Below, piece by piece: positions 1-17,445 of a stretch of DNA of 64,000 bases (the first letter of the stretch is position 1; each line of letters begins with the position of its first letter). The notes beneath the pieces are model-generated. The model was not told the origin of the DNA and made no database searches. It saw only the letters and a list, made by a program, of their open reading frames with translations. Made by a program: the position numbers and the translations under genes. This DNA comes from Cyanobacteriota bacterium. GTDB lineage: Bacteria > Cyanobacteriota > Cyanobacteriia > Cyanobacteriales > Nostocaceae. The stretch spans positions 56,297 to 120,296 of the forward strand of contig JBJOKS010000018.1 of NCBI GenBank assembly GCA_046045965.1, written 5' to 3'.

Positions 1-990
1 TGGTCCACCGGCATTAGTTAAAATTGTTAATCTTGGACCTTTGGGTCGCGGTTGTTTTGCTAATACTTCTGACATATCAAATAAATCAGAAATACTATCA
101 ACTCTTAATACTCCACACCGACGAAAAGCTGCATCTAAAACAGCATCACTTCCTGCTAATGATCCTGTATGAGAAGCGGCCGCTTTTGCTGCTGCTGCGG
201 TACGACCAGCTTTAATAACAATTATCGGTTTTGTTAATGCTACTTCTCGCGCTGCGGAAAGAAAAGAACGCGCATCACCGATTGATTCCATATAGATTAC
301 AATACTTTTTGTATTGGGATCATCTCCCAAATAATAAATTAAGTCTCCCCAACCTATATCTAACATTGAACCGATAGAAACAAAGGCACTAAAACCAACG
401 TTTTCCTGTAAACTCCAATCCAAAATTGATGTACATAATGCCCCACTTTGACTTAAGAAACCTACATTTCCTGGTTGTGCCATTTTACTAGCAAATGTAG
501 CATTTAAACCAGAAATTGGACTCATAACTCCTAAACAGTTTGGTCCAATAATTCTAATTTTTCCTTTGTGTGCTATTTCCAGAATTTCTTGTTCTAAAGC
601 AATTCCTTTTTCTCCTGCTTCTTTAAAACCAGCAGAGATAATTATTGCTCCTTTAATTCCGGCTTTTACGCAATCAGTAATAATTTGTGGTACTGTGGGT
701 GCAGGGGTAGCAATTACCGCTAAATCAATTTTTTCAGGAACATCAAAAATTGTCGGATAGGCTTTAATTCCTAATACACTATTGCGTTTGGGATTGATGG
801 GAAATACTGTACCATTGAAAGGGTTTGTAATTAAATTCCAGAGTAAGGTTCTACCCACACTTCCGGGTTTTTCACTTGCACCAATGACGGCTACGGTTTG
901 AGGGGCAAAAATCGCGTCTAAGGGGTTGATTTTCTCGGTTTGTAAGATGTCGTAAGCTTTGTCTGTCGTTGGTTTGATAGATGCTTGCAT
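1..990 (-). CDS. Acyl/acetate-CoA ligase (NDP-forming) family protein, probably the bifunctional ligase/GNAT acetyltransferase; 5' part only, runs off the window edge
   Basis: Not in the ORF track; translated by hand from ATG at 990 (AGGAG RBS upstream): [46 protein letters not shown]...IIGPNCLG...SQSGAL...YMESIG...KAGRT...SHTGSLAG...TNAGGP, the CoA-binding and ligase motifs. The GNAT part would lie outside the window. Confidence 0.88.
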
Positions 991-1073
991 AATTACTCCT
1001 TAATTAGTTATTAGTCATTAGTTATTGGGTATTAGTGTTTTTTTTCAATTACCCATTACCTATTACCCATTTT

Positions 1074-1541
1074 TCACTCTGAATTCATCCCTAAATTGTT
1101 ATGTTTATCTAGAATTTGCATAATTTTTGATAGTGCAGTGGTAATACCTTTTTGTGCTGTAGGTGAAATGCGATCGCTCAATTCAAAATTAACACCTGGG
1201 ACAGTGACTAACCATGCTAATGGACAATTACCATAGAGAAATTGAGCCAGAAAAAGTAAGGTTTGCGGATCACTTGTATGGGGATTAATAGTATTTGATT
1301 CACTAGGTAATAATGGTTTTACCTGTACTTCATGAGATTGGGAATTAATACAGGCATCCACAAAAATTGCTAACTGAGAATTTGCCAAAGGTTCAGCTAA
1401 TTCTGGTGTAAGTTGGTGAACAGCAACTGATTTTACAGATGATAAACACCAAAATTTTATAGCCTTTGCTACCTGTTGTCCAATGGCATCATCACCCCGT
1501 AATTCATTACCGTAACCAATCACTATTGCAGTTCCACTCAT
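1074..1541 (-). CDS. hoxW: Hydrogenase maturation endopeptidase for HoxH
   Basis: GYGNELRGDDAIG, HQLTPEL, IFVDA and H-x-x-x-P motifs; close to the hox cluster. Confidence 0.9.
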   Translation of the reverse strand: MSGTAIVIGYGNELRGDDAIGQQVAKAIKFWCLSSVKSVAVHQLTPELAEPLANSQLAIFVDACINSQSHEVQVKPLLPSESNTINPHTSDPQTLLFLAQFLYGNCPLAWLVTVPGVNFELSDRISPTAQKGITTALSKIMQILDKHNNLGMNSE

Positions 1542-1725
1542 TACCTGATCATCCTCTTAGTAAGTCACTAATTGCTTGTATTATTAGACATTTTAGCTTT
1601 TGGATTGCTAATTCCCTTTCCCTTGTAAATATACCTTGGTTGAAATCCATCTCTCACAATCATTTGACAAATTAGTAGAATTGGCATATTGTCATTTAAA
1701 ATCAGCATTCTCTTCTTTATATTTG

Positions 1726-1759
1726 AGCTTAAAACAAAAGTTTGAGGAACTTGTGAGGA
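1726..1759 (-). promoter_or_regulatory. Putative OmpR/PhoB-type direct-repeat box (TCCTCAC-AAGT-TCCTCAA) plus -10 element TAAGCT, upstream of hoxW
   Basis: TTTGAGGAACTTGTGAGGA (1741-1759) is exactly repeated at 10429-10447; 7-4-7 repeat followed 10 nt later by TAAGCT on the minus strand. Confidence 0.65.
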
Positions 1760-1909
1760 AATATAATAATTTAACAATTACTATTTTTCGACAACTTGAC
1801 AAATTTATGTTAATACTCTATTCCTTTTCAGAATTATTAGTTATATGATTAATTTGCGTGGTGAAATCAAACCCGTTAAAAAAAATTAGATAAATTGTGA
1901 GGCTGTTTT

Positions 1910-2296
1910 ATGCCTGAAGTAAATTTTCAACAGCCAATTAAGAGTGCTGCTACTCTGATTGAGGAATATGTAGCGGGAAAACGAGACTTTGAACGAGCAG
2001 AATTAGGTGATGCTAATCTGCAAGGTGTAGACTTAAAAGGGTCTGACCTCAGCTATGCTGATTTAAGTACAGCCAACCTCAGCCGTGCTATTCTGCGGGG
2101 ATGTGATCTTAGCTATACTGATTTGAGTCAAGCTAATTTACAAAATGCAGATTTGCGAGGTGCGATGTTGTTTTCTGCGGATCTGCGTCAAGCTGATTTA
2201 CAGGGAACACGTTTAGAAAAAGCAGATTGCGACCATAACACCCATTTTCCCCCAAATTTTGATGCTATTACAGCTGGTGTAAAGATGAGCAAATAA
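1910..2296 (+). CDS. Pentapeptide repeat protein
   Basis: Y-x-A-G-x-R-D-F start followed by tandem A(D/N)Lxx repeats. Confidence 0.92.
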   Translation: MPEVNFQQPIKSAATLIEEYVAGKRDFERAELGDANLQGVDLKGSDLSYADLSTANLSRAILRGCDLSYTDLSQANLQNADLRGAMLFSADLRQADLQGTRLEKADCDHNTHFPPNFDAITAGVKMSK

Positions 2297-2312
2297 CCGG
2301 ATGAATACTGAT

Positions 2313-2338
2313 GCGGCTATATCAGCCGCCTATTTTTA
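2313..2338 (+). terminator. Intrinsic terminator-like hairpin
   Basis: GCGGCT-ATATC-AGCCGC followed by CTATTTTT just after the pentapeptide gene stop. Confidence 0.5.
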
Positions 2339-2409
2339 TACAGATGTAAATATTAAAAGTTAATAAAACCCTAATAGATCACTTGACAAATATAATAGCA
2401 GATTTGATA

Positions 2410-2517
2410 TATAGCAGTTCCCATGCTCGTGAGGTACAAAGTTTTTTAGTTTTAGGGAACAGGGAAATCTTAACAGGGAATAAATTGGTATTTACTTCAT
2501 TAGACTGAGCAACTCTA
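2410..2517. mobile_element. Degenerate MITE-like element (TATAGC-type end)
   Basis: Left end TATAGCAGTTCCCATGCTCGTGAGGTACA; the right end is only a weak inverted match; AGGGAAC-type repeats inside. Confidence 0.4.
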
Positions 2518-2550
2518 CAATATCATACGTTATATTATAGTAAAAATTAC

Positions 2551-2667
2551 TATAGGAATCATATTTGATTCTTGAAAAACACTCCTTACACTTTCCTTGT
2601 TAAGAGTTCCCTGTTAAGATTTCCCTCTCTACACAGATAATTTCAAAAATCAAATACCAGTCCTATA
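2551..2667. mobile_element. MITE with 27-bp terminal inverted repeats and TA ends (IS630/Tc1-mariner-like)
   Basis: TATAGGAATCATATTTGATTCTTGAAA ... TTTCAAAAATCAAATACCAGTCCTATA, 23/27 inverted match. Confidence 0.72.
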
Positions 2668-2689
2668 TCAACCGAAATTAATAAAACCC

Positions 2690-3205
2690 ATGAGAAAGAT
2701 CCGCTTATTTATTGCTTCTAGTCTCGACGGATATATTGCAGATAAAACCGGGAAAGTAGATTGGTTATTTACTGACGATGATTATGGTTATTCTGAGTTT
2801 TTTAACCAAATAGATACTTTAATCATGGGAAATAAAACATATCAACAAATTCTCGGTTTTGGTGAATATCCCTATCCTGGAAAAGAAGCATTTGTTTTTT
2901 CCAAGATGCAGCATGGAGAACAAGATGATCATGTCAAATTTGTCGGGGAAGATTTAGAGAACTTTATCAAAAACTTACGTCGATCTAGTGGTGATGATAT
3001 TTGGCTAGTTGGTGGTTCACAGGTAATCGAATTTTTTATGGAAAAGGGATTTTTGGATGAAATTATTATTGCTATCCATCCAATTATTTTAGGGGATGGT
3101 ATTCCTTTATTTAGCAAGAATACCAATATTACGCAAAGATTAGATTTAATAGATGTGAAAACGTATCCTTCGGGATTAGTGCAAGTTTATTATTTATTCT
3201 GTTAA
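2690..3205 (+). CDS. Dihydrofolate reductase-like / RibD C-terminal domain protein
   Basis: IASSLDGYIA, MGNKTY, IWLVGG, LDEIIIAIHPIILGDGIPLF. Confidence 0.9.
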   Translation: MRKIRLFIASSLDGYIADKTGKVDWLFTDDDYGYSEFFNQIDTLIMGNKTYQQILGFGEYPYPGKEAFVFSKMQHGEQDDHVKFVGEDLENFIKNLRRSSGDDIWLVGGSQVIEFFMEKGFLDEIIIAIHPIILGDGIPLFSKNTNITQRLDLIDVKTYPSGLVQVYYLFC

Positions 3206-3260
3206 ATCAATGATCACCGCTTGACTTCACCCCTTTCAATAACAAAAATTTTTCCTTTTT

Positions 3261-3278
3261 CCTCCCCTGTAGGGGAGG
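3261..3278. repeat. Short palindrome between convergent genes (possible bidirectional terminator)
   Basis: CCTCCCCT-GT-AGGGGAGG. Confidence 0.5.
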
Positions 3279-3303
3279 GTTAGGGAATGGGGAATCTCAA
3301 TAA

Positions 3304-4752
3304 TTAATCCCTGACAATTTGATTAACTATTGTGCCATCTTTTGCCACTAATTCTATTAGTACAGGCATTTGTCCCACCGCATGAGTAGAACAACTTAAA
3401 CAAGGATCAAAAGCCCGAATACCAGCCTCCACACGGTTTAACATTCCTTCTTTAATTTCACTACCTTGGATAAAATAACGGGCAATTTGAGCAACTGTAC
3501 GATTCATTGCTAAGTTATTTTGACCAGTTGCAATAATTAAATTTACCTTCAACATCAAACCATTTTCATCAACTTGATAATGATGGAATAAAGTCCCCCT
3601 TGGTGCTTCACTCACACCCACAGCTTCTAATTGATTAATACCAGCTTCCGCACGCAGACGAGTTGATAAAATCTCTGGGTCATCAAGTAAAATTTCGATG
3701 TGTTCAATACAAGCCAAAATTTCAATTAACCGCGCATAGTGATAAAAGAAAGAAGATTTTACCGTACCAGTTCCATAACTGCGAAATTCTTTTAATTCCT
3801 TATCAGCTAAAGGTGTACCAATGTGACTGCAAATATTCAATCTTGCTAAAGGTCCAACCCGATACATTCCACTATCTAAACGACAATGATCACTTGTGTC
3901 TGGATAGCCTAAAGGACGATAGTAAGGAGATTTCAAATAAGAATCTTCTTGAACTGCTTCACCAAGAAATTCTTGATAATTAGCAGCATCTAATTTATCA
4001 GCAACTATGTTTCCCGCACTATCAACAAAACGGATATGTCCATCATAAGTTTCCCATAAACCTTCTGATGTGACTAACCCCATAAATAAACTAGGGAAAT
4101 TACCAAAAGTTTGCGCTTCTTTTTCGTAATCTTTTAACAAGCCCTTAAATAAATCTATGGCATTTAAAACAGTGGTTTTAGCTTCAGGAATACGTTGTTG
4201 AATGTGAGTGCGATTTTCTTGGGTTAAAGGATCACTAACTCCACCAGGAACCGCCCAAGAAGGATGGATTTTTTTCCCTCCTAATAATTCAATAATTTCT
4301 TGTCCAAATTGCCGTAAACGAATACCACCTCTGGCTAATTCTGGATCTGCGGCTATCAAACCAAATACGTTACGGTTAGCAGGTTCGCTATCCATTCCTA
4401 ATAATAAATCTGGGGCGCTAAGGTGAAAGAAACTCAAAGCATGAGATTGGACAATTTGCCCTAAATTCATTAAACGGCGTAATTTTGTAGCGGTTTTGGG
4501 GATAGTTACAGCCAGAATTTGGTCGCCTGTTTTTGCTGATGCTAACAAATGGCTTACCGGACAAATACCGCAAATTCTCGCAGTAATTCCTGGCATTTCT
4601 GGAAACGGACGACCCACACAAAACTTTTCAAAACCGCGAAATTCTGTCACATGAAACCGCGCATCATTTACTTGACCGTCATCGTCTAAATAAATGCTAA
4701 TTTTCGCGTGTCCTTCAATGCGAGTAACCGGATCAATAATTATTTTTTTCAT
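3304..4752 (-). CDS. hoxH: Bidirectional NiFe-hydrogenase large subunit
   Basis: [16 protein letters not shown] and DPCLSCSTH with a cleavable C-terminal tail. Start placed at ATG 4752 (MKKIIIDP); the upstream extension in the ORF track is STRR read-through. Confidence 0.96.
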
Positions 4753-4756
4753 AAGA

Positions 4757-4791
4757 GACTGGGGACTGGGGACTGGGGACTGGGGACTGGG
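4757..4791. repeat. STRR1-type heptamer array (GACTGGG/CCCAGTC)
   Basis: Five tandem GACTGGG units immediately upstream of the hoxH start. Confidence 0.9.
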
Positions 4792-4836
4792 AATTACTAT
4801 TTTCTCAATCCCCAATTATGAATTACGAATTATCAA

Positions 4837-5451
4837 TTACAGATCATAAACCCTAGCTTCTTCGGCTTCTGGATACTCTTCACAGTATTCTTCAAAAGCT
4901 GTTTTTAGGGGTTTCATAGCCCGTTGGTGAGAAATTTCGGCTTGTATTTCTTCTACCACATCCCAAGCGGCTGCACATTCGGGGGAATTAATACCTTTGT
5001 CTGCACAAACAAGACGGGCTTTTCTAATTTCATCTTGTAATTCTTGTTCTAACAGAATTGAATGAGGTTTTTCTAAAGAACTGCTTCCAGCCAAGATATC
5101 AGTTAATGAGATTATTCCTAATAATTCACCACTAATTACAGGCGCACGCCGCAAATGATGATCAGCAAATAATCTCGCTACATATTCTAAACCCAGACTA
5201 GGATTAACAACAATGCAAGGTTTAGTCATGATTTCATAGATACGGACTTTATTTGGGTCTTTTCCATAAGCTATAACTTTATAAACAATATCGCTTTCAG
5301 TCACAATTCCATAAGCATCTTGTTCATGACGACGATCTACAATTAACGCTCTCCAGTCTCTAGCTTTCATTAAATCAACCGCTTCTTTGACTGTAGCAGA
5401 ACCACGAATCATTGCTACATCTTTTGTCATTACATCTGCTGCTGTTAACAT
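4837..5451 (-). CDS. CBS-pair/CP12 fusion protein
   Basis: Two CBS repeats, then the CP12 core C-x9-CAAAWDVVEE and EEYC...PEAEE.RVYD. Confidence 0.88.
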   Translation of the reverse strand: MLTAADVMTKDVAMIRGSATVKEAVDLMKARDWRALIVDRRHEQDAYGIVTESDIVYKVIAYGKDPNKVRIYEIMTKPCIVVNPSLGLEYVARLFADHHLRRAPVISGELLGIISLTDILAGSSSLEKPHSILLEQELQDEIRKARLVCADKGINSPECAAAWDVVEEIQAEISHQRAMKPLKTAFEEYCEEYPEAEEARVYDL

Positions 5452-5529
5452 AATTCACCTCTTTAAAAAATAGGGTACTGGGTACTGGGTACTGGGTACT
5501 GGGGATAATAATTAATTACCAATTACCAA

Positions 5530-6075
5530 TTACCCAAACTTAATCATTTCTCTGCCTTCCATTAGTGGTTTTTCTCCTTTTAATAATGGTTCAAGTGTGG
5601 CACGAATACGGGGGGCTGAAGGTGGACAACCGGGTAAATAAATATCAACTGGTACTACATAATGAACAGGTATAACTGTATCAAGTAATGGGGGAACTAT
5701 ACCAGGTGAATGGGGAATTTTTTGGTTAATATCAGCACCTTGAATATAAGCTAATTGCAAGCTGACATCAGCATTTCCTGTCGGGTTACGCATGGCGGTT
5801 ACATTACCAGTTACAGCGCAATCTCCAAAGGAAATTATTGTTTTGGTGCGTTGTCTAATAATGTGGATTAATTCTAAATGTTCTTCGTTAGCTATAGCCC
5901 CTTCAACTAATACCACATCCACACCTTCTGGATATTCTTTAATATCAGCAATGGGACTATAAACTACATCCACTTGTTCGGCTAAATCTATTAACCATTC
6001 ATCCAAATCAAGAAAAGACATATGACATCCAGAACAACCACCTAACCATACTGTTGCGAATTTAATTTTAGTCAT
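5530..6075 (-). CDS. hoxY: Bidirectional hydrogenase small subunit
   Basis: WLGGCSGCHMSFLD, FGDCA, LPGCPP. Confidence 0.96.
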   Translation of the reverse strand: MTKIKFATVWLGGCSGCHMSFLDLDEWLIDLAEQVDVVYSPIADIKEYPEGVDVVLVEGAIANEEHLELIHIIRQRTKTIISFGDCAVTGNVTAMRNPTGNADVSLQLAYIQGADINQKIPHSPGIVPPLLDTVIPVHYVVPVDIYLPGCPPSAPRIRATLEPLLKGEKPLMEGREMIKFG

Positions 6076-6103
6076 TTTTTACCTTGTTAGTAATTTGTTT
6101 TTT

Positions 6104-6132
6104 GTAGGGGTTTAGGATTGCTAAAACCTTAC
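6104..6132. repeat. GTAG-type REP-like palindrome
   Basis: GTAGGGGTTTAG-GATTG-CTAAAACCTTAC, an imperfect inverted repeat inside the hox operon. Confidence 0.55.
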
Positions 6133-6134
6133 TT

Positions 6135-6656
6135 TCAATGATCATTTGTAATTAATGATTTCCATTCTTTAACAACATGAACAGGAACTGAGAGATTAAT
6201 AGATTTGAGACCAGGTAAAGGTATTGCTAAATTTAAAGATTCTGGAGGTAATTGGGGCAGTATTTTAGTGAAATCATATTGACCAATAGTAGGGGCTGGT
6301 GCTTCATCTAAAAACACATCTGCTGCATTCCAAACTTTACCTGTATCTGAGGTGATTTTTAAAGGTTGGGGATGAATTAATTCCGCAGTACCAGGAAAAC
6401 CAACTAACCGGAGATTGATTGTAGTTGCTTCACCAGGATAGACTTGTTTAAATAATACAACCTGCCAAACCTTACCTGATTGATCATCTAATTTTGTTTG
6501 TGAGCGATAAAGAATTTCTCCTGGTATTTCTTCTATTTTGGTAACAACAGCAATTGCACTCTTGAAGGTGAAATTTGCTAAACCCAGGAATATAACTATT
6601 GTCAATATTCCCAGTAATATCACCCGTAAAAATATTTTTCCAATCCAGTGGAACAT
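6135..6656 (-). CDS. Exported/membrane-anchored conserved cyanobacterial protein (DUF3122-like) between hoxU and hoxY
   Basis: N-terminal hydrophobic segment; YRS..L.D..G..WQVVLFK and LRLVGFPG...HP.PL motifs; GGAGG RBS. Confidence 0.7.
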   Translation of the reverse strand: MFHWIGKIFLRVILLGILTIVIFLGLANFTFKSAIAVVTKIEEIPGEILYRSQTKLDDQSGKVWQVVLFKQVYPGEATTINLRLVGFPGTAELIHPQPLKITSDTGKVWNAADVFLDEAPAPTIGQYDFTKILPQLPPESLNLAIPLPGLKSINLSVPVHVVKEWKSLITNDH

Positions 6657-6707
6657 CAGATTTACCTCCCGGTAATTGATAAGAAATATTCCCCGGTTCC
6701 CAACCTT

Positions 6708-7424
6708 CTAAAAATTCCATTGTTTTTTCTCCCTTGCAGTGACTAAAAAATCAATTTTGCCCCGTTCATGTACCATTTCACTGACGCTTGAACCTTTATT
6801 AAACAGCGCACCTGTGGGACAGGCATTCACACATTTACCACAGGAAGTACAAGTTTGAGAAGTTCCCCAAGGCTGATTTAAATCAGTAATCACGTGAGAT
6901 TTTGATCCTCTTCCTGCCATATCCCAAGTATGTGCGCCTTCGATTTCATCACAGACACGAACACAACGAGTACAAAGTACACAACGATTATGATCAATCC
7001 CAAAACGGTCATGAGAAGTATCAACGGCACGAACAGGATTTTGATATTCTAATCTGACGTGATCCATACCCATTTCGATAGCTAAATCTTGTAATTCACA
7101 ATTGCCATTAGCAACACAAACAGAACAAATGTGATTACCTTCTGCAAATAGCATTTCGATGATTGTACGACGGTATTTTTGCAAGCGATCGCTGTTTGTC
7201 GTCACCTCCATTCCTTCTGAAACTTTTGTGACACAAGCTGGTAAAAGTCTATTCATCCCCGCAATTTCTACCAAACACAATCTACAAGCTCCCACATCTC
7301 CCACACCTTCTAAATGACAAAGTGTAGGAATATGCACACCCGCTTCTTGCGCTGCTTCTAATAAGGTTTCATCCTCACGGGCGCTAATCATTTGCCCGTT
7401 AATTGTTAATGTTTTTACTGTCAT
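6708..7424 (-). CDS. hoxU: Diaphorase subunit (2Fe-2S/4Fe-4S)
   Basis: [40 protein letters not shown]. Confidence 0.96.
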
Positions 7425-7429
7425 AATAA

Positions 7430-7560
7430 TTTGGTAATGGGTAATGGGTAATTGCTAATTGGTGATTGGTAATTGGTGATAGGGAAGAAAGAATAAACTC
7501 TTGCCTTTTGCCTTTTGCCTCTTGCCTTCTTACTGTTCCCTGTTCCCTGTTCCCTATTCC
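7430..7560. repeat. Composite STRR block (GGTAATT-like array, conserved spacer, TTTTGCC array, CTGTTCC array)
   Basis: Three heptamer arrays; the 25-bp core 7489-7513 is identical to 50210-50234. Confidence 0.85.
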
Positions 7561-9152
7561 CTAACTAATGCCAAATACTCATCATGGAAATAACGCAAAG
7601 TGCTAAAAACGGGATTTGGTGCAGACTGGCCTAAACCACATAAACTTGTGTGTTTCACCATGTCGCAAAGTTCTTCTAATAATTGCAAATCAGCTTTTGC
7701 TGCTTTTCCTTCACTAATCTTGGTTAATAAATCATGTAGTTGCACAGTTCCCACTCGACAAGGAATACATTTACCACAAGATTCATCCATGCAAAATTCC
7801 ATGAAAAATCTCGCCACATCTACCATATTTGTGGTTTGATCCATCACAATCATCCCACCAGATCCCATCATTGAACCTAACGCGGTTAAGGATTCGTAAT
7901 CTACAGGTGTAGCAAATGCTGATGCTGGGATACATCCCCCGGAAGGTCCGCCTGTTTGTACTGCTTTAGCAATACCATCGGGAACTCCTCCCCCCATTTC
8001 TTCGACAATTTGTTGTAAAGTTGTCCCCATTGGAACTTCAATTAAACCAGTGTTGCGGATTTTTCCAGCTAAAGCAAAAACCTTTGTACCTTTACTTTTT
8101 TCTGTGCCAATATTAGCAAACCAATCAGCACCATTTCTGATAATTGGGGCAATATTAGCAAAGGTTTCTACATTGTTAATTAAGGTTGGATAACCCCATA
8201 AACCTGATTCAGCCGGGTATGGTGGACGGGGATGAGGGACACCGCGTTTACCTTCAATAGAAGCCATTAACGCCGTTTCTTCACCGCAAACATAAGCCCC
8301 TGCACCGATGCGAATTTCAATTTTAAAATCAAAAGGTGATTCAAAAATTTGTGAACCTAAAAGTCCTAAACGTTGGGCTTGACGAATTGCAGTTTCTAAT
8401 CTTTTAATAGCAATCGGATATTCTGCCCTGACATAAATATAACCTTGAGTTGCACCGATGGCATAAGCTGCGATCGCCATTCCTTCTAACACTCGATGGG
8501 GATCACTCTCCAACACACTCCGATCCATAAATGCACCGGGATCACCTTCATCAGCATTGCAAATTACAAACTTTTTCTCACCTTTTGATTTTGCTACTGT
8601 CGCCCATTTTAAACCGGTGGGATAACCAGCACCACCCCTTCCTCTTAACCCACTTTTAGTAATAGTTTCTACTACCTCAGTTGGTTTCATTTCTCTTAAT
8701 ACTTGGTAAAGGGCTTGATAACCATTTTCTACAATGTAAGATTGAATTCTTTCTGGGTCAACTTTACCACTGTTTTCTAACACAATCGGTAACTGACCAG
8801 TAAAAAATGGCTGCTGCAAATCTTGTTGTTTTAAATTCGTTTCTTCTCCTTGAATACTTGCAATAACTTTTGCGGCCTCCTCTGGGGTAACTTGTTCATA
8901 AAGTTTCGTTTCTTTGTTGTTTTCTTGATCCACTTGTACCAAAGGACCTTGACAACAAAGCCGCATACAACCCACACCAGAAACATGAATCTGATCTTCT
9001 AAACCCGCAGCTTTTACAGATTTATCTAAATTATCTTTTACTGCTTGAGAACCGGAAGATAAACAACCCGCAGCTGTACAACAACGAATCTGCACAGGTT
9101 TCGCTTGAGAACGTTCAGTTCTCGCAATTTCTAATAATTCATTTAGTTCCAT
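7554..9152 (-). CDS. hoxF: Diaphorase NADH/FMN-binding subunit
   Basis: [53 protein letters not shown]. Confidence 0.96.
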
Positions 9153-9651
9153 TTTCCTGCCATTCTCCCACTTTTTCGCAAACTGATTCTGAGGTTTGAT
9201 TTCCTAAAACTGCACCATCAAAAACTACCGCAGGTGCAATACCACAAGCACCCAAACACCTCGCTGTCATCAAGGAAATTTCCCCATCTGGGGTTGTTTC
9301 TCCAGCTTTAATATGAGTGGCTGTTTCTAAACTTTTTAAAATTTCTTGTGCGCCTTTCACATAACAAGCTGTACCCGTACAAACTACACAATTATGTTTA
9401 CCTTTCGGTGCCAGGGAAAACAAATGATAGAAAGTGGCAACTCCATACACACGACTCGGTGGTAATTTCAATTGATGGGCAATGTACAATAATAAGTCTA
9501 ACTCTAAATAACCGAATAATTCCGAAGCTCGATGGAGAATTTCAATTAGTGCATCTTGTTGATATTGATGACGTTTGATAGTTGCATCCAACATCTTCAA
9601 ACGTTTATCACCACTGGGATGAGTAGATGGGGGTGAAACAGAAGTTTTCAT
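9139..9651 (-). CDS. hoxE: Diaphorase 2Fe-2S subunit (NuoE-like)
   Basis: GVATFYH, CTGTAC, CLGAC; overlaps the hoxF start. Confidence 0.96.
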
Positions 9652-9652
9652 G

Positions 9653-9737
9653 ATTGGTAATTGGTAATTGGTAATTGGTAATTGGTAATTGGTAATTGGT
9701 AATTGGTAATTGGTAATTGGTAATTGGTAATTGGTAA
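9653..9737. repeat. Heptamer STRR array ATTGGTA x12
   Basis: Perfect tandem array abutting the hoxE start codon. Confidence 0.95.
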
Positions 9738-9753
9738 TATTTAAAAATCTTCC

Positions 9754-10251
9754 CTATTCCCCATTCTCTATTCCCTCAAAATGGATAATATGCACAGAAC
9801 AAGGGGCATGATGTAAAACATAATTGCTGACACTACCAATTAAAAATTCGGTGATACCAGAAAGTCCTCTTCTTCCAATCACAATCAAATCAGCATTCCA
9901 TGTCTTAGCCATTTGGCAAATTATTTTACCGGGACTACCCACATTTTGCGTAAATTCTGTGTTAAGGTTTTCTGTATTGGCTTGGGCGCAGAATGCTTGT
10001 AACATTTCCAAACCTTCGTTTTGATGGACTGCCAACTTTTGCAAGTACCTTTTCATACTGTCATCACCCCAGCCTGGATAATAATCCATCTGAGAAATAA
10101 GCATCATATCAGGAATACCATCTTCATCTGGTGATAGAACGTGTAGTAGCATTAAGTTAGCTGATGTCAGCTTTGCTAAAGACAGGGCTTGTTCAAAAAC
10201 TTGCTTACCCATGTCCGAACAATCCAATGCCACTAAAATTTTGTTAAACAT
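9754..10251 (-). CDS. Universal stress protein (UspA family), first gene of the hox operon
   Basis: MFNKILVALD ... ADLIVIGRRG...IGSVSNYVLHHAPCSV; GAGGG RBS favours ATG 10251. Confidence 0.93.
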   Translation of the reverse strand: MFNKILVALDCSDMGKQVFEQALSLAKLTSANLMLLHVLSPDEDGIPDMMLISQMDYYPGWGDDSMKRYLQKLAVHQNEGLEMLQAFCAQANTENLNTEFTQNVGSPGKIICQMAKTWNADLIVIGRRGLSGITEFLIGSVSNYVLHHAPCSVHIIHFEGIENGE

Positions 10252-10413
10252 AGATACCCTCATTTTAGCTCGCTCATGATTAACAATAGCTCTTTCTGTT
10301 GTATGAATTCCTGTTTGGTAAAAATACGTTTATTTCATTTGGATTTCGTTACAATCATCTTCACAATTCGTTAATCTAAACACCTATCCTTGTACTTGGT
10401 TCTACACTTATGC

Positions 10414-10447
10414 TTTATACGCCAACAATTTGAGGAACTTGTGAGGA
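10414..10447 (-). promoter_or_regulatory. Second copy of the OmpR/PhoB-type box plus -10 element TATAAA, upstream of usp-hoxEFUYH
   Basis: 19-bp identity to 1741-1759; the same 10-nt spacing to a -10-like hexamer (10414-10419, minus strand). Confidence 0.65.
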
Positions 10448-10576
10448 TAGATGATTGGTATAGCAGGAGTTAGGTGTCAGAATAAAGATAACTGTTCCCT
10501 ATTTCTGGAGTTGTTTCATTTTTACTACCAATTTACTACCAATTTTTAAAACTACTAGATCAAGGAAGCTTTTAAA

Positions 10577-13500
10577 ATGAAAATTTTAGTGATCGAGGAT
10601 GACGAGTTAAATGCCTATGCACTCACCGCCGTTCTCACTGACCAAAATTATGCGGTAGAAGTGGCGACTGATGGTGATGCAGCCTGGGATTTAGTTGAAA
10701 CCTACGATTATGATTTAATACTTTTAGATGTCATTCTACCTAAGCTAGATGGTATTAGTTTATGCCGGAAAATTCGTTACAGTGGTCGGCAAGTACCAAT
10801 TTTATTATTAACAGGATGTGATAGCTCTCATGATAAAGCTATTGGCTTAGATGCAGGTGCAGATGATTATGTAGTGAAACCTTTTGATCAAGAAGAGCTA
10901 GTAGCCCGTGTTAGGGCATTATTACGACGGGGTAGCATCACCTCAAAACCTGTATTAGAGTGGGGTAATTTACGATTAGATCCCAGTAGCTGTGAAGTCA
11001 CATATCACCAAAACCTCCTCTCACTCACCCCAAAAGAGTACGCTTTGTTAGAACTTTTGATGCGAAATAATCGCCGCGTATTTAGCTGTGGGATGATTTT
11101 AGAACATCTTTGGTCCTATGAAGATACACCTGGAGAAGAAGCCGTTCGCACCCATATTAAAGGTTTACGCATGAAGCTCAAATCAGTGGGAGCGCCTCAT
11201 GATTTAGTAGAAACAGTATATGGGATTGGTTATCGTCTCAAAGCTCAGGAAGAAGGGGAGCAAAACGCAGGGAGCAAGGAGCAGGATACTAATTCAAAAT
11301 CTCAGCAAACTCTGACTGCTATTGGGGAAATTTGGCAGCGATTTCGTGGTCGGATAGAGGAGCAAGTTAGCATTATAGAACAAGCTACACAACAAGTTTT
11401 AAATCCAGTTTTAAATCCAGAATTGCTATCACAAGCTGCTAAAGAAGCCCACACATTAGCAGGTTCTTTAGGCACTTTTGGCTTGGCTTCAGGTTCAGAA
11501 TTAGCTAAAAAAATTGAGAATTTATGGAAATCTCCTAAAAATTTAACTGCAACTGACATAAATAACCTACAAAATTGGGTCAAGTTACTGCGTCAAGAAA
11601 TTGATAGTAAAAATCAGAAAAATCCACACCCTACAATTAATAGCTATCAACAGTCTTTAGTTGTTGAGGAAGAATTAGACCAAACAACAACCAAAGCGAA
11701 AATATTAGTAGTAGATGATGATCCACAAATTTTAGCATTATTACAAACATTCCTGACACCTTGGGGACTGGAGATTATTCCACTTAATGATCCTCTTCAA
11801 TTTTGGGAAACTTGGCAAAAAGTAAAGCCAGATATGCTGATTCTGGATGTAGAAATGCCTGGTAAAAATGGGATTGAATTATGTCAACTGATCCGCAACG
11901 ATCCCCAAGGAAGTGAGCTACCCATCTTGTTTCTCACAGTCCATAATGATGCAGAAATTGTGAATCAGGTGTTTAGCGCCGGTGCTGATGATTTTGTCAG
12001 CAAACCCATTATCGGTTCGGAACTGGTAAACCGCATCATTAACCGATTAGAACGAGTGAAACTCTTGAGAAGAATGGCACAAACCCGAAATCAACAAATT
12101 CATGAACTGGAAAATCAAACTCGATTTATTCAAGAAAGTTATCACAATTTAGTAGAAGTTTATCCAGACGCAATTTTTATTATCAGTGACAATAATTTTG
12201 TGTTTGTAAACAGCGCCGCAGTCACACTTTTTGGTGTTACTTCAATAGCAGAATTATTAGGTAAACCATTTCTCGACTTTGTACATCCCAATTACCAAGC
12301 TGGAATTAGGGAAAATCTCCAATACCTGAAAATAAATAAACAATCAATTCCCTTACATGAAGTTAAGTTTTTAAGGGTGGATGGGAGCGCCATTGATATA
12401 GAAATTGTCGCAGCAGATATTATTTACCAAGGTCAACCAGCATCCCAAATTGTCGCTCGTGATATTACTCAACGCAAGCAAACAGAATTAGCACTAAATA
12501 TAGCTAAGGACGAACTAGAATTAAGAGTTGTAGAACGCACTGCGGAGTTAATTACTGTTAATCATCAGTTGCAGTCTCAACTAGATGAACGACGACGTAC
12601 ACAGGAAGCTCTGCGAATTTCTCAAACTAGATTTGAAGGCATTTTGAGCATTGCTGATGATGCAATTATTTCTATTGATGGTAGTCAAATCATTACTTTA
12701 TTTAATCAAGGTGCAGAAAAGATTTTTGGTTATTCTGCTCAAGAAGTGCTAGGAGAAAAACTAGATTTACTATTACCGATGCGCTTTGCTGAACAACATC
12801 GCCATCATGTATCTGATTTTGGTAAAACTTCTAGTCCTGCTCGCAGAATGGGGGAAAGACGGGAAATATATGGTCGCCGCAAAGATGGTACTGAATTTCC
12901 CTCTGAGGCTTCTATTTCTAAATTAGATGTTGGTGAAGAATGTGTTTATACAGTTATATTGCGAGATATAACTGAACGCAAACAAGTGGAGAAAATGAAA
13001 GATGAGTTTGTCTCTGTTGTCAGTCATGAACTGCGTACTCCCCTAACTTCAATTCATGGATCTTTAGGAATGTTAGCTAGTGGGTTGTTACCAACAAACT
13101 CAGAACAAGGTAAACGCTTGCTACAAATTGCGACAGATAGCACTGAACGTTTGGTGAGGTTAATTAATGATATTCTCGACATTGAGCGCATCGAGTCGGG
13201 TCAGGTAAAAATGGAGCGCGAAAATTGCAATCTGGAGGATCTAATTAAGTCGGCTGTGAATATTATGCAGCCTCTGTCCAATAAAGCTGGAGTAAATTTA
13301 TCTATTTCTAATTTATCTGTACAACTCTGGGCTGATCCAGATCGAATTATCCAAACTTTGACTAATTTGTTGAGTAATGCCATTAAATTTTCTGCTTCTG
13401 GTTCTACGGTTTCATTGATGACGGAACTAAAAGAGAATGAGGTTTTAGTGATCGTCAAAGATACCGGCAGGGGAATACCCGCTGATAAGCTAGATAGTAT

Positions 13501-14482
13501 TTTTGAAAGGTTTCAACAAGTTGATTCTTCAGATTCTCGCAACCACGAAGGTACTGGTTTAGGTTTGGCTATTTCTAAGAGCATTGTACAGCAGCACGGT
13601 GGAGAAATATGGGTAGAAAGTGAGTTAAACACAGGTAGTAATTTTTATTTTACCCTGCCAATTTGCGAGATTTTTCACAATGCTGAATCAGAAAATTCTG
13701 CGGATGAAGAAATGCTAATTGCTAATCAGTATTCTCCTTTAGTTTTAGTTTGTGATGACGATGTTGTGATCCGCAATGAATTACAAAAATTGTTGGAACA
13801 AGGAGGATATCGGGTGATCACGGTAGATAGGGGTGAAGAAGCGATCGCTCAAGCAGTTTCTCAACATCCAGATGTGATTTTACTAGATTTACTCATGCCA
13901 GGTATGAATGGCTGGGAAACAATGGCACTATTAAAAGAAAGCTCAGATACTCAGGATATACCTATTGTGATTTGTAGTGTCTACAAACCCAGTCAAAGTA
14001 ATCCATCAAATGCTGATTTTGTAGATTGGTTAAGTAAGCCAGTAGAAGAAAACTCTCTATTAAATTCCTTGAGAAAAGTGATATCTGAACCTTCTCGAAA
14101 AGCGAGAATTTTAATTGTTGAGGATGATAATGATCTGGCTGATTTATTAGCAACTTTGTTTGAGAGACATGATATTGAAACTTTCATCGCTAAAACTGGT
14201 AGGGAAGCTATTCATCTCAGTCAAAAAATCAATCCTGATTTACTAATTCTTGATTTAATTTTGCCTGAAAGTGATGGTTTTACAGTTGTGGATTGGTTAA
14301 AACAACATAATCACCTTTTTAGTATTCCCGTGGTTGTTTATTCTGCTAAGGATTTGGATGATTCGGAACGCCATAGATTAAAATTAGGACATACAGAATT
14401 TTTGACTAAAGGACGAGTTACTACCCAGGAATTTGAACAACGCGTGATGGATCTGCTCCAAAGAATGACTCAAAATCATTGA
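10577..14482 (+). CDS. Multidomain hybrid: REC - OmpR wHTH - HPt - REC - PAS - PAS (heme-like) - HisKA - HATPase - REC - REC
   Basis: LLDVILP...GADDYVVKPF; LTPKEY.LLE...VRTHIKGLR.KL...ETVYGIGY; EAHTLAGSLGTFG; SHELRTPL; NLLSNAIKF, DTGRGIP, GTGLGLAI; four Asp-containing receiver domains. Confidence 0.93.
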   Translation: MKILVIEDDELNAYALTAVLTDQNYAVEVATDGDAAWDLVETYDYDLILLDVILPKLDGISLCRKIRYSGRQVPILLLTGCDSSHDKAIGLDAGADDYVVKPFDQEELVARVRALLRRGSITSKPVLEWGNLRLDPSSCEVTYHQNLLSLTPKEYALLELLMRNNRRVFSCGMILEHLWSYEDTPGEEAVRTHIKGLRMKLKSVGAPHDLVETVYGIGYRLKAQEEGEQNAGSKEQDTNSKSQQTLTAIGEIWQRFRGRIEEQVSIIEQATQQVLNPVLNPELLSQAAKEAHTLAGSLGTFGLASGSELAKKIENLWKSPKNLTATDINNLQNWVKLLRQEIDSKNQKNPHPTINSYQQSLVVEEELDQTTTKAKILVVDDDPQILALLQTFLTPWGLEIIPLNDPLQFWETWQKVKPDMLILDVEMPGKNGIELCQLIRNDPQGSELPILFLTVHNDAEIVNQVFSAGADDFVSKPIIGSELVNRIINRLERVKLLRRMAQTRNQQIHELENQTRFIQESYHNLVEVYPDAIFIISDNNFVFVNSAAVTLFGVTSIAELLGKPFLDFVHPNYQAGIRENLQYLKINKQSIPLHEVKFLRVDGSAIDIEIVAADIIYQGQPASQIVARDITQRKQTELALNIAKDELELRVVERTAELITVNHQLQSQLDERRRTQEALRISQTRFEGILSIADDAIISIDGSQIITLFNQGAEKIFGYSAQEVLGEKLDLLLPMRFAEQHRHHVSDFGKTSSPARRMGERREIYGRRKDGTEFPSEASISKLDVGEECVYTVILRDITERKQVEKMKDEFVSVVSHELRTPLTSIHGSLGMLASGLLPTNSEQGKRLLQIATDSTERLVRLINDILDIERIESGQVKMERENCNLEDLIKSAVNIMQPLSNKAGVNLSISNLSVQLWADPDRIIQTLTNLLSNAIKFSASGSTVSLMTELKENEVLVIVKDTGRGIPADKLDSIFERFQQVDSSDSRNHEGTGLGLAISKSIVQQHGGEIWVESELNTGSNFYFTLPICEIFHNAESENSADEEMLIANQYSPLVLVCDDDVVIRNELQKLLEQGGYRVITVDRGEEAIAQAVSQHPDVILLDLLMPGMNGWETMALLKESSDTQDIPIVICSVYKPSQSNPSNADFVDWLSKPVEENSLLNSLRKVISEPSRKARILIVEDDNDLADLLATLFERHDIETFIAKTGREAIHLSQKINPDLLILDLILPESDGFTVVDWLKQHNHLFSIPVVVYSAKDLDDSERHRLKLGHTEFLTKGRVTTQEFEQRVMDLLQRMTQNH

Positions 14483-14567
14483 ATAAGGCAGGAAGTAGAT
14501 AATTAAAATGATGTTATAATCTACTTTTAATTATCTAAAATCTAAAATTTATCAGGAGATAGGAATA

Positions 14568-14954
14568 ATGACAAAAAAGCAAATTTTAGTAGTTGATAAT
14601 GAGCCGTATATTCAAGAAATAGCTAAAATTTGTTTGGAAACTGTTGCCGGTTGGGAAGTGCTGACTGCTAGTTCTGGTCAAGAGGGAATAGTACAAGCAG
14701 AAAATCATCAACCAGATGCGATTTTATTAGATGTAATGATGCCGGATATGGATGGAATTGCTGCTTTTGAAAATTTACAAGCAAATCCAAATACAAAAGA
14801 AATTCCGGTGATTTTGTTAACTGCAAAAATCCAAGTTGCTGACCGTCGTCGTTATGCTCAGTTGGGAATAAAAAGTGCGATCGCTAAACCATTTAATCCT
14901 CTAGAATTAGCAGGACAAGTAGCAGCAGCTTTGGGTTGGAATTTGGAAAATTAA
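14568..14954 (+). CDS. Single-domain (CheY-like) response regulator
   Basis: ILVVDN, LLDVMMPDMDG, LLTA, AKPF; AGGAG RBS; directly downstream of the hybrid kinase. Confidence 0.93.
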   Translation: MTKKQILVVDNEPYIQEIAKICLETVAGWEVLTASSGQEGIVQAENHQPDAILLDVMMPDMDGIAAFENLQANPNTKEIPVILLTAKIQVADRRRYAQLGIKSAIAKPFNPLELAGQVAAALGWNLEN

Positions 14955-14964
14955 ATGAAACTAA

Positions 14965-14995
<31 letters not shown>

Positions 14996-15016
14996 ATTCT
15001 GACTCCTGCTGTATAG

Positions 15017-15739
15017 TCATTCAGATAACGACATCGCGTGTAAATGCAATTCCTTTTCCTCAATTGGTGCTAGATAATATTTAAACCATTGACTCGCTAA
15101 TCTTCCTACTTCCTCCATCGCACCAGGTTCACTAAACTTGTGACTAGCTTCAGGAATAATCTCTAGTTGTTTATGCTGGGTGGGAATTTCTGCGATCGCA
15201 TCCTCGTTCATGGCCATTATCGCACAATCATTACCACCAACAATCAACAAAGTTGGAACTTGGATATAGCAAAGGCTTTCGCTTACCAAATCAGTATAAC
15301 CACTACGACAAACAATTGCTCCCACATTCATAGGACGAGCTAATGCAGCTAAAAATACTGCTCCACTACCTCTATTTACACCAAAGTAACCAACTTTTAA
15401 ATCACGAGTAACTGGATTTTCAAACAACCAGTCTGTGACGGTAATTAACCGCGAAGCCATAAACTTAATATCATGTCGAAAATGCTGAGTACGTTGATCA
15501 ATTGCATCTTCCTCTTCAGTCAATAAATCAATTAATATAGTTGCTAATCCTTCCTGCTGACGCAACAAATGGGCTAAATAATGATTGCGGGTACTATAGC
15601 GGCTGCTACCACTACAATGGGCAAATACAACTATTCCCTTAGCTTCTGGGGGTACAACTAATTCTCCTTTGAGTCGCAGCATTCCTAGCTCAATGCTAAC
15701 TATTTGTTCTAAAATATTCCAAGATTGTTTATTATTCAT
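15017..15739 (-). CDS. Dienelactone hydrolase-like alpha/beta hydrolase (PRTase-associated), with a degenerate catalytic motif
   Basis: GIVVFAHCSGSSRYS.RN, DLLT.EE, GYFGVNRG in place of the usual GYFGASTG, PTLLIVGG.D, ASH.F.EPG. Confidence 0.8.
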   Translation of the reverse strand: MNNKQSWNILEQIVSIELGMLRLKGELVVPPEAKGIVVFAHCSGSSRYSTRNHYLAHLLRQQEGLATILIDLLTEEEDAIDQRTQHFRHDIKFMASRLITVTDWLFENPVTRDLKVGYFGVNRGSGAVFLAALARPMNVGAIVCRSGYTDLVSESLCYIQVPTLLIVGGNDCAIMAMNEDAIAEIPTQHKQLEIIPEASHKFSEPGAMEEVGRLASQWFKYYLAPIEEKELHLHAMSLSE

Positions 15740-15822
15740 GGGTTTAACCTTTTAGGTAATAGGTAATAGGTAATCGGTAATCGGTAATCATCAATATCAA
15801 AAAGCAATTAAAAATCTAAAAT

Positions 15823-16464
15823 CTAAAATCTAAAATCTAAAATCTCCTGTACTTCTTCATCAGTAGTTTGGGAAAAATCTTCATACCACACACCAATAGC
15901 AGACAGATTTTCTGGGGTTTGCAAACACACTATTTCATCTACTTCTGACTGCAATTGTTCGTAAGTGCTTGCCGGCGCAACTGGAACTGCAACAACAATT
16001 TTTTTAGGTTTTTGTTGTTTAAGAATAGCAATAGCAGCACGCATGGTTGAACCAGTAGCAATACCATCATCTATCAAAATTACTATTTTATCTTTGACGT
16101 TTATAGGTGGAGCATTCCCCCGATAAGTGCGATCGCGTCGCTGTAATTCTTGCAATTCCTCAGCAGCAACTATCTGAATAGCTTCTCTATCAATTCCCAA
16201 AGTGTTGATCACATTGTAATTTAGTACCCCTATTCCCCCAGAAGCGATCGCCCCCATTGCTAATTCTTTCTGTCCAGGTACACCGAGTTTTCTGACTATA
16301 CAGATATCTAAAGGCGCATTTAAAGCTTTGGCTACTTCAAACGCAACCGGCACACCCCCACGAGGCAAACCTAATACCAACAAGTTTTCTTGGTTAGTAT
16401 AATCTCTGAGATGGTGAACTAACATTTGTCCTGCTTCCGTGCGGTTACGAAATCTCAACACCAT
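15823..16464 (-). CDS. Phosphoribosyltransferase (type I PRTase)
   Basis: LGLPRGGVPVA, VRKLG.PGQ.ELA.GA, ILIDDGIATGST; GGAGG RBS before ATG 16464. Confidence 0.92.
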   Translation of the reverse strand: MVLRFRNRTEAGQMLVHHLRDYTNQENLLVLGLPRGGVPVAFEVAKALNAPLDICIVRKLGVPGQKELAMGAIASGGIGVLNYNVINTLGIDREAIQIVAAEELQELQRRDRTYRGNAPPINVKDKIVILIDDGIATGSTMRAAIAILKQQKPKKIVVAVPVAPASTYEQLQSEVDEIVCLQTPENLSAIGVWYEDFSQTTDEEVQEILDFRF

Positions 16465-16716
16465 CACTATCACCTCCTGGTACTAATTTTAGATTTTAGA
16501 TTTTAGATTTTTAGATTTAAAATTACTGTTTTATCTTGATAATTCACTATTACCCATTACCAGCATAAACAGATGTTATAACTATTCAAACGTACATAAT
16601 ACAAGAATTCAAAATACAGAACCCATCATCATACTCAAGCATAATTTCACTATCATGATTATTATTTTTTATAAACTCTCGAATCTGTTAATTGAATTCC
16701 TGATTTTACAAATATT

Positions 16717-16755
<39 letters not shown>

Positions 16756-16917
16756 ATTCTTACAACAAAATTACAATAATTATTAAAATCCATCTGATGA
16801 GTTATTATTGCTGCATATTTTCAAAAAATTGATTAATATGGCCAATATAGCCCAAGCCATGTCAGATAAAAACCACAATAGGTATAGATTTGAGATACTC
16901 CCCAAGGAATATGAACT

Positions 16918-17445
16918 ATGTTTAACAAAATTTTAGTTGCTCTCGACAACTCTGCCAGCAGTCAGTATATTTTTGAGCAAGCCCTATTTTTAGCCAAAGC
17001 CAGTGAGGCAGAAATGATGTTGCTTCACGTTTTATCTCCTTTAGAAGATCCTTATATCAACCCGATATTTTTGCAGCCAGAAACTATATATCCCACCTTG
17101 CACACTGAAACCATTAATCAATATTTGCAAGCTTGGGATCAACTCAAGCAAGATAGACTAGATTGGATGCGATCGCTAACTCAAACAGCAGTTAATACAG
17201 GTGTCAAAACTGAATTTACTCAAACTGTAGGTGATGCAGGCCGCATTATCTGTGAAATAGCTTTAAGTTGCCCAGCTGACTTAATTATAGTCGGTCGCAG
17301 GGGACGTACTGGTATCAGTGAAGTTTTTTTAGGCAGCGTTAGCAACTACGTTTTACATCATGCTCATTGTTCAGTTCTCACCATCCAAGGCTTAATTCCC
17401 CTCATCACACCAAACACCGAAACCACCCAAGTAGCTTCCACGTAA
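16918..17445 (+). CDS. Universal stress protein (paralogue of 9754-10251)
   Basis: MFNKILVALD ... ADLIIVGRRG...LGSVSNYVLHHA. Confidence 0.93.
   Translation: MFNKILVALDNSASSQYIFEQALFLAKASEAEMMLLHVLSPLEDPYINPIFLQPETIYPTLHTETINQYLQAWDQLKQDRLDWMRSLTQTAVNTGVKTEFTQTVGDAGRIICEIALSCPADLIIVGRRGRTGISEVFLGSVSNYVLHHAHCSVLTIQGLIPLITPNTETTQVAST

Follow-up and report, generated by a model that had tools for sequence, protein, structure and literature searches.

RcaC has the domain order REC-wHTH-HPt-REC (receiver, winged helix-turn-helix, histidine phosphotransfer, receiver), and its L-box consists of two direct 7-bp repeats separated by 4 bp. In the light relays RcaE-RcaF-RcaC (type III chromatic acclimation) and RfpA-RfpC-RfpB (far-red acclimation), as the available text of PMC5737509 and PMC8256508 describes them, a kinase, a stand-alone receiver and a regulator form one relay, at whose end the regulator activates transcription from a box in the promoter. 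Here we analyze a 64,000-nucleotide stretch of Nostocaceae DNA (assembly GCA_046045965.1, contig JBJOKS010000018.1, positions 56,297 to 120,296 of the forward strand; the window hereafter) in which a single gene joins an RcaC-like regulator to a sensor kinase. We consider it probable, on the evidence of sequence, that this gene encodes a soluble kinase fused to its own activator, which binds haem in its second PAS domain (PAS2), senses oxygen or redox state and activates a fermentation and hydrogenase regulon through a direct-repeat box. Whether low oxygen is the main activating signal is an even call. The gene, its domains and the receiver gene behind it are as follows.

10577..14482, plus strand: fused regulator-kinase gene, REC1-wHTH-HPt-REC2-PAS1-PAS2-HisKA-HATPase-REC3-REC4 (one open reading frame in 81 of 88 homologous loci)
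10583..11239, plus strand: REC1 (D51 at 10727-10729) and OmpR-type winged helix (residues 148-221), predicted DNA-binding output (Pfam; conservation in 81 fusions)
11327..11596, plus strand: HPt, H292 at 11450-11452 (Pfam; His in 80 of 81 fusions)
11696..12061, plus strand: REC2 (D424), absent from some orthologues (detected in 76 of 81)
12140..12460, plus strand: PAS1, variable accessory domain (detected, at >=45% identity, in 27 of 81)
12659..12976, plus strand: PAS2, FixL/DosP-type, predicted to bind haem, His741 at 12797-12799 (FixL/DosP are the top PDB sequence matches; fold search)
12995..13663, plus strand: HisKA (H817) and HATPase (N930, G boxes) (Pfam; H817 and N930 in 81 of 81)
13733..14479, plus strand: REC3 (D1104) and REC4 (D1226), which some family members do without (detected in 66 and 64 of 81)
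14568..14954, plus strand: stand-alone receiver (D55), predicted kinase-HPt shuttle in the RcaF/RfpC position (Pfam, one receiver domain; downstream of 78 of 81 fusions)

The reading frame encodes 1301 amino acids and is uninterrupted by a stop or frameshift. A Pfam scan of the protein places in it four receiver stretches, Trans_reg_C (148-221), Hpt (251-340), two PAS domains (522-628 and 695-800), HisKA (807-875) and HATPase_c (920-1029). Together with the unbroken frame, this bears out the original prediction, made from the letters of the window, that REC-wHTH-HPt-REC is joined to PAS-PAS-HisKA-HATPase-REC-REC. The phospho-acceptors it had called intact are all present (D51, H292, D424, H817, D1104 and D1226), and the stand-alone receiver it had placed after the fusion is a single-domain gene with its acceptor, D55. 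No transmembrane segment is evident in the fusion, as had also been said, the highest 19-residue hydropathy mean being 1.55. The reading as a soluble kinase that carries a FixL-type PAS and, in one protein, its own OmpR-type output is supported. PAS1 has no cofactor signature, its PDB search giving ARNT2 alone (E 8e-4). Within the source genome, which is 92% complete, the fusion is the sole member of its winged-helix clade, the closest other wHTH paralogue being 36% identical, and its HPt finds no second match. Of three RNA runs listed, one contains a 0.64 share of the words searched and two contain small shares.

The top protein matches of the fusion come from Anabaena, Sphaerospermopsis, Cylindrospermopsis, Nostoc and Fischerella. 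At E<=1e-100 there are 2031 protein matches out of 7988 scored, some of which are not fusions, and 120 of 151 family genomes matched the fusion at E<=1e-130. A search of representatives at 50% identity brought back mostly multi-PAS proteins and was set aside. For the comparison of loci we chose 89 genomes whose best match, among the matches listed, covers PAS2 or the kinase with at least 53% identity; this set leaves out genomes with only N-terminal or ~50% kinase matches among those listed. Among the 88 loci retrieved, wHTH and kinase lie in a single open reading frame in 81, and the other seven comprise three loci with a broken gene, two that hold the kinase only, a split pair and a contig end. 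REC1, wHTH, HPt, PAS2 and the histidine kinase (HK) were found in every one of the 81 fusions, and D51, T79 and K101 of REC1 and A189, V190, R191, T192, H193, K195 and R198 of the winged helix are invariant among them. The fusion is common in Nostocaceae, real and intact. Genes in pieces, with stops or frame changes, occur at loci L123 (genome G094), L126 (G130), L177 (G134) and L075.

As to its origin, the fusion looks like a cognate regulator/kinase pair joined into one gene, because the regulator and a His-PAS kinase are neighbouring separate genes in genomes G015, G020, G078, G231, G246 and G293. The FixL-like His-PAS was not seen in the split relatives at loci L055-L086, which are therefore probably paralogous cassettes.

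The conservation of the receivers makes it doubtful that this is a one-polypeptide phosphorelay, as had been proposed: REC3 and REC4 are detected in 66 and 64 of 81 fusions, yet a separate receiver follows 78. A small receiver gene also follows 12 of the 13 fusions that have neither REC3 nor REC4. Because this separate gene is better kept than the C-terminal receivers, the relay probably leaves the single chain. The conserved core is the regulator, the PAS2-kinase and the separate receiver.

PAS2 is the predicted sensor domain. A PDB sequence search put FixL first (E 1e-22), then DosP and FG214, with LOV domains far behind. The predicted fold of PAS2 (predicted local distance difference test score 73, 23 sequences) also places FixL haem domains first in a fold search, in keeping with the FixL/DosP-like fold that had been anticipated. 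His741, which had been matched by eye with the proximal haem ligand of FixL, aligns with the proximal His of the FixL F-helix and is present in 81 of 81 fusions; so are R756, M758, E760, R761 and E763. In the FixL/DosP cluster (cluster 3), according to the available text of PMC10468136, haem binding is determined primarily by the F-helix His, which 60% of that cluster retains. The Met and Arg residues of the FG loop, also remarked on at the outset, hold up in part: R756, M758 and R761 are invariant, but Met758 aligns with FixL Ile216, out of register with DosP Met95. The distal Arg that holds bound O2 in FixL, R220, has a tentative counterpart in R762 (69 of 81), which neighbours a one-residue alignment gap and the invariant R761. 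From its FixL/DosP matches and the conserved His741, PAS2 is likely to bind haem.

The predicted output site is a box on the opposite strand, and the features that concern it are these.

10431..10447, minus strand: direct-repeat box TCCTCA-N5-TCCTCA (17 bp, 11-bp period) before usp-hoxE, predicted binding site (exact match and matrix scan)
10414..10419, minus strand: -10-like hexamer TATAAA, 11 nt downstream of the usp-hoxE box (sequence)
9754..10263, minus strand: universal stress protein (Usp) gene, first behind the box (Pfam)
3304..9651, minus strand: cluster of hoxE, hoxF, hoxU, DUF3122, hoxY, CBS-CP12 and hoxH, predicted target (domain scan)
1743..1759, minus strand: second identical box, before the hydrogenase-maturation-protease and acetate--CoA ligase genes (exact match and matrix scan)
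1074..1541, minus strand: hydrogenase maturation protease-like gene, predicted target (TIGR00072, E 1e-14, 54.4 bits against a curated cut-off of 47.45)

The word TCCTCACAAGTTCCTCA stands at both 10431-10447 and 1743-1759 on the minus strand, two matches against 0.33 expected, which is weak alone. A matrix of seven seed sites finds nine sites of at least 21 bits in the source genome, seven of them the seeds, against one in a random genome. In a scan that did not require a -10 element, TA lies exactly 11 nt past the box in 73 of 76 boxes, and no consensus -35/-10 pair is present at the usp-hoxE box site. The box thereby has the promoter geometry of an OmpR/PhoB-type activator, in which a direct repeat of 10-11 bp period keeps a constant distance to the -10 and a -35 is absent. 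PhoB-type activators recruit RNA polymerase from a site in place of the -35 element. Binding of the fusion protein to this box is predicted with good confidence. Enrichment is a property of the full motif alone: the loose pattern CCTCA-N6-CCTCA gives 12 and other spacings give 4-17.

In the source genome the nine sites precede usp-hoxE, maturation protease-acetate--CoA ligase, nifJ-DHODH-like-pfkA, ppsA-pyk, a Blh-like gene, a radical SAM-NrdG-like pair, ptox (assigned by a start identical to AOX-positive homologues), a 71-aa Cys protein and a contig end. Six of the nine boxes sit within 37 kb of the regulator gene. A 40-kb fermentation island (G000:C18:30051-70775 in the source genome; loci L182 and L183 and window 1-14954) has six boxes inside and contains ppsA-pyk, pfkA, a DHODH-like gene, nifJ, sucrose synthase, GH65/HAD, an acetate--CoA ligase with a GNAT domain, the maturation protease, hox, usp and the regulator. 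Two candidates for autoregulation were rejected. An 11-bp repeat upstream of the start codon (10521-10542) is carried by none of 79 orthologue upstream regions, and the box is directed away from the fusion gene in 30 of 79 cases and toward it in six. A single GTA-N8-TAC (NtcA-like) word at 10392-10405 overlaps the predicted usp-hoxE transcription start.

Across the 151 family genomes the box occurs in 129, and a reversed control motif in two. It is present in all 122 genomes that have the wHTH clade (E<=1e-41) and in all 114 genomes with PAS2; of the 29 genomes without the wHTH, seven have the box and 22 lack both. In a sample of the phylum the box occurs in eight of 174 genomes outside the family, where the correspondence with the regulator is looser. 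For the targets we surveyed 80 of the 150 boxes among the matches listed (692 further) from genomes G020, G086, G141, G148, G150 and G157, and 77 of them have a gene behind. Of the 77, 21 belong to a group made up of hox, maturation protease, nifJ (or the nifJ partner), ppsA, pfkA and acetate--CoA ligase; Usp, Hsp20 or ribosome dormancy genes account for 11 and PTOX or protoglobin genes for three, the rest being mixed or unnamed. No light-harvesting or photosystem gene was recognised among the 77, about a quarter of which are unnamed.

Several other genes stand behind boxes. A Cys protein of 71-100 aa with a CPCC...CxxCW motif lies behind a box and divergent from ppsA in several genomes (source-genome box G000:C18 30051-30078, minus strand; loci L187, L222, L260 and L298), and none of three homologues scanned matches a Pfam family. 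A protein of at least 407 aa with a PSNYWR motif at its start, which has no Pfam or NCBIfam match, follows a box in three genomes (L211, L254, L263). CopM-family copper chaperone genes have a variant of the box (L225, L243, L257 and L297, one of them on a small G338 contig), which a related OmpR regulator, and not the fusion, may recognise. After the receiver gene, window positions 15017-17445 hold hydrolase-like, phosphoribosyltransferase and second Usp genes, which recur beside the receiver in L021, L024 and L026; a phosphoribosyltransferase gene is behind a box in L206.

We propose that haem on His741 of PAS2 would set kinase activity by its state, and that H817 would autophosphorylate in a signal-dependent manner. 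By analogy with RcaE-RcaF-RcaC, phosphate would then pass from H817 to D55 of the stand-alone receiver, to H292 of the HPt and to D51 of REC1, with REC3, REC4 and REC2 as optional modulators. The phosphorylated winged helix would bind the box in the -35 position, recruit RNA polymerase and activate transcription. The output would be glycolysis to acetate and H2 (pfkA, ppsA-pyk, nifJ, acetate--CoA ligase and hox) together with ptox, usp and dormancy genes.

The likely orthologue in Nostoc/Anabaena PCC 7120 is Alr2428-Alr2429 (P0121, BAB74127.1), since BAB74127.1 is 67% identical to the fusion over the PAS2-kinase half and 59% over the N-terminal half. Early PAS and two-component surveys of this strain (Ohmori, Narikawa; Ashby and Houmard 2006) reportedly listed Alr2428, maybe as a haem-type PAS protein. 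Genome G338 encodes a protein identical to BAB74127.1, behind which lie a receiver gene and an oppositely oriented TamB gene; the published order alr2428-alr2429-all2430 in PCC 7120 is described likewise, in a source whose available text names Alr2428 merely as a ColR homologue. A literature search for 'alr2428', with subscription papers and supplements outside its reach, yielded a passing mention only and no functional study. All0729, another candidate, was rejected as the orthologue: it is the c-di-GMP kinase CdgKA, without wHTH or HPt, and the available text of bioRxiv 10.64898/2026.09.11.750938 gives it as REC-GAF-PAS-GAF-PAS-PAS-GAF-HK-REC with no DNA-binding domain.

The G338 regulator gene lies ~2 Mb from hox, and boxes are still present there. 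Fifteen G338 boxes (<=2 mismatches) precede usp-hoxE, hoxU, nifJ, ppsA, ptox, a LysR regulator gene, feoB, a Mo-nitro_C gene and others. In the available part of a PCC 7120 RNA-seq study of a shift from 3% to 0.04% CO2 (PMC7699953), the fold changes are -146 for all4986 (LysR), -107 for ppsA, -74 for both hox clusters, -65 for ptox, -43 for the feo operon, -42 for nifJ, -5.8 for asr1714 and -5.6 for alr1713 (Mo-nitrogenase C-terminus-like). The eight most repressed entries of its Tables 1-4, which are the authors' selection out of 211 repressed genes, all match box-bearing G338 units as judged by product and position. This agreement supports the view that the box genes form one tight regulon. 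The LysR gene with a box (L300, G338:C1:5957031-5960059) is likely all4986 by product and position and is called an ndhR orthologue; because it carries the box, the regulon may feed into the control of CO2 uptake genes.

Several points weigh against the proposed reading. In the alignment the proximal FixL Arg206 position is Asp747, and the invariant Glu760 faces a hydrophobic distal FixL residue. A PAS2 match is absent from eight of the 122 regulator- and box-positive genomes and from three of five box-bearing genomes outside the family. Seven family genomes carry boxes without the regulator, eight of 72 hoxF genomes are without the regulator, and outside the family a wHTH passing E<=1e-41 occurs in three genomes that lack a box. 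The cut behind the counts of 122 and 29 was fixed after the list had been viewed, at the gap from 4e-42 to 8e-39, and related genomes among the 151 are not independent. As the available text of PMC7699953 states, the culture in which the regulon was on had been illuminated and shaken in air with 3% CO2, and its expression fell after a wash and 1 h in air. Such aerated, illuminated conditions for the on state cut against a plain anoxia switch, and the authors themselves attribute the changes to LexA/cyAbrB and metabolites.

The alternative that survives best has the same box regulon with a main input other than oxygen: carbon or energy status, NO/CO, the redox state of the haem or the variable GAF/PAS domains, with PAS2 haem-less or modulatory. 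We hold it to be possible but unlikely. It would suit the regulon being on in light with 3% CO2 and off after the step-down, the co-variation of hox and nifJ with calcium shifts (available text of PMC4915528), the additional PAS and GAF domains of the PCC 7120-type orthologue, the box-bearing genomes without PAS2 and the differences in the PAS2 pocket from FixL. Against these stand His741 and the FG-loop motif, kept in 81 of 81 fusions whereas other sensory domains come and go, and the targets, which are classic anaerobic genes (PFOR, Hox, FeoB, NrdG-like activase).

LexA, cyAbrB, group-2 sigma factors and core OmpR proteins are general factors, and we find it improbable that one of these reads the box and the fusion merely co-travels with the gene island. 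The location of the fusion gene within that island in the source genome and the seven genomes with boxes and no regulator would fit such a case, as would the standing of LexA and AbrB-like proteins as described hox regulators (available text of PMC4463661, PMC3091678 and PMC13421787). However, the 22 of 151 genomes without the box are all without the regulator too, with contrasts within single genera (g67, g70, g22), and the G338 boxes persist though the regulator is far from hox. The published LexA box, in the text available, is a pseudo-palindrome, unlike the direct repeat here.

The original prediction had made the fusion the transcription factor of a divergent hox operon. The gene directly opposite is in fact the Usp gene, and hoxE comes next. 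Part of the claim stands: the box precedes usp-hoxE, and of the 37 genomes having regulator and hox on one contig, 23 show them divergent and no more than 15 kb apart. Specificity for hox does not, with boxes also at nifJ, ppsA, pfkA, ptox and usp and no hoxF match in 58 of 122 regulator-positive genomes of the 151-genome set. Among the 89 genomes hoxF is matched in 53 (23 divergent within 15 kb, 14 farther away on the same contig and 16 on another contig). The link between regulator and hox is real, neither exclusive nor required. That the relay is self-contained and serves the divergent hox operon alone is highly improbable, the divergent arrangement and the usp-hoxE box notwithstanding: hoxF is unmatched in 36 of the 89 genomes compared for synteny and in the 58 of 122, eight of the nine source-genome boxes are away from the hox operon, and the separate receiver is better kept than REC3 and REC4. 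Short tandem repeats (7-mer arrays), typical of heterocystous cyanobacteria, occupy window positions 9655-9740, in the usp/hoxE gap, and 14966-15010, past the receiver gene.

We return to the fusion as a haem-based kinase and activator of the box regulon. How oxygen-producing bacteria control oxygen-sensitive hydrogenase and fermentation genes is answered in reviews, as far as their available text goes, by general factors only (LexA, cyAbrB, RpaA). Two reviews name in that text only LexA, AbrB-like proteins, RpaA and ChlR as regulators, and 'RcaC' and 'oxygen sens' have 0 occurrences in a 2026 review. Our literature search found no paper on such a regulator, and subscription papers and supplements may hold more. 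Taken singly, the haem PAS and the RcaC-type relay belong to known kinds; the combination of the two, and the regulon, are apparently undescribed in the literature searched. For a strain amenable to genetics, the finding names the gene, defines the site (17 bp) and lists the targets. If it is true, a constitutive allele or the box would offer a way into both H2 production and the dark and anoxic survival of bloom-forming Nostocales. We see the chances as evenly balanced that filamentous cyanobacteria possess here an undescribed FixL-like gas sensor with an RcaC-type activator as master switch of fermentation, hydrogenase and PTOX, a counterpart of FNR, ArcAB and FixLJ drawn from a chromatic-acclimation relay and represented in PCC 7120 by Alr2428-Alr2429.

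Compared with known systems, the fusion shares with the Rca/Rfp relays the order REC-wHTH-HPt-REC with intact Asp and His residues, and a stand-alone receiver encoded beside the kinase in 78 of 81 cases. It differs from RcaE-RcaF-RcaC and RfpABC in that kinase and regulator are one gene, and in its sensor, a His-PAS, there being no bilin GAF or PHY in the 1301-aa protein by Pfam. Its targets are fermentation genes and not, as for RcaE-RcaF-RcaC, phycobiliproteins. The likely orthologue Alr2428 differs in turn, having 1627 aa, extra PAS and GAF domains, and a position not adjacent to hox. The low-oxygen and hox regulators ChlR, cyAbrB1/2, LexA, Hik31 and RpaA overlap with it in targets (hox, nifJ) as far as the available sources tell, but include no haem-PAS kinase or RcaC-type activator. 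Like the haem PAS of rhizobial FixL-FixJ and E. coli DosP, PAS2 lies directly before HisKA, is 37-39% identical to the FixL haem domain and has the proximal His aligned. Unlike FixL, the fusion has a WalK/PhoR-like kinase core (NCBIfam NF041777 scores 147 against a cut-off of 850 bits, over the PAS2-kinase part only), an OmpR-type and not LuxR-type output, a multi-step relay, and differences at Arg206 and distal-pocket positions. FG214 (PDB 10jx), by its entry title a one-component haem-PAS transcription factor, resembles the fusion in uniting DNA binding with a PAS that binds haem, as PAS2 is predicted to do, and the FG214 PAS matches PAS2 by sequence and fold; the fusion differs in having a kinase, an HPt and receivers for signalling.

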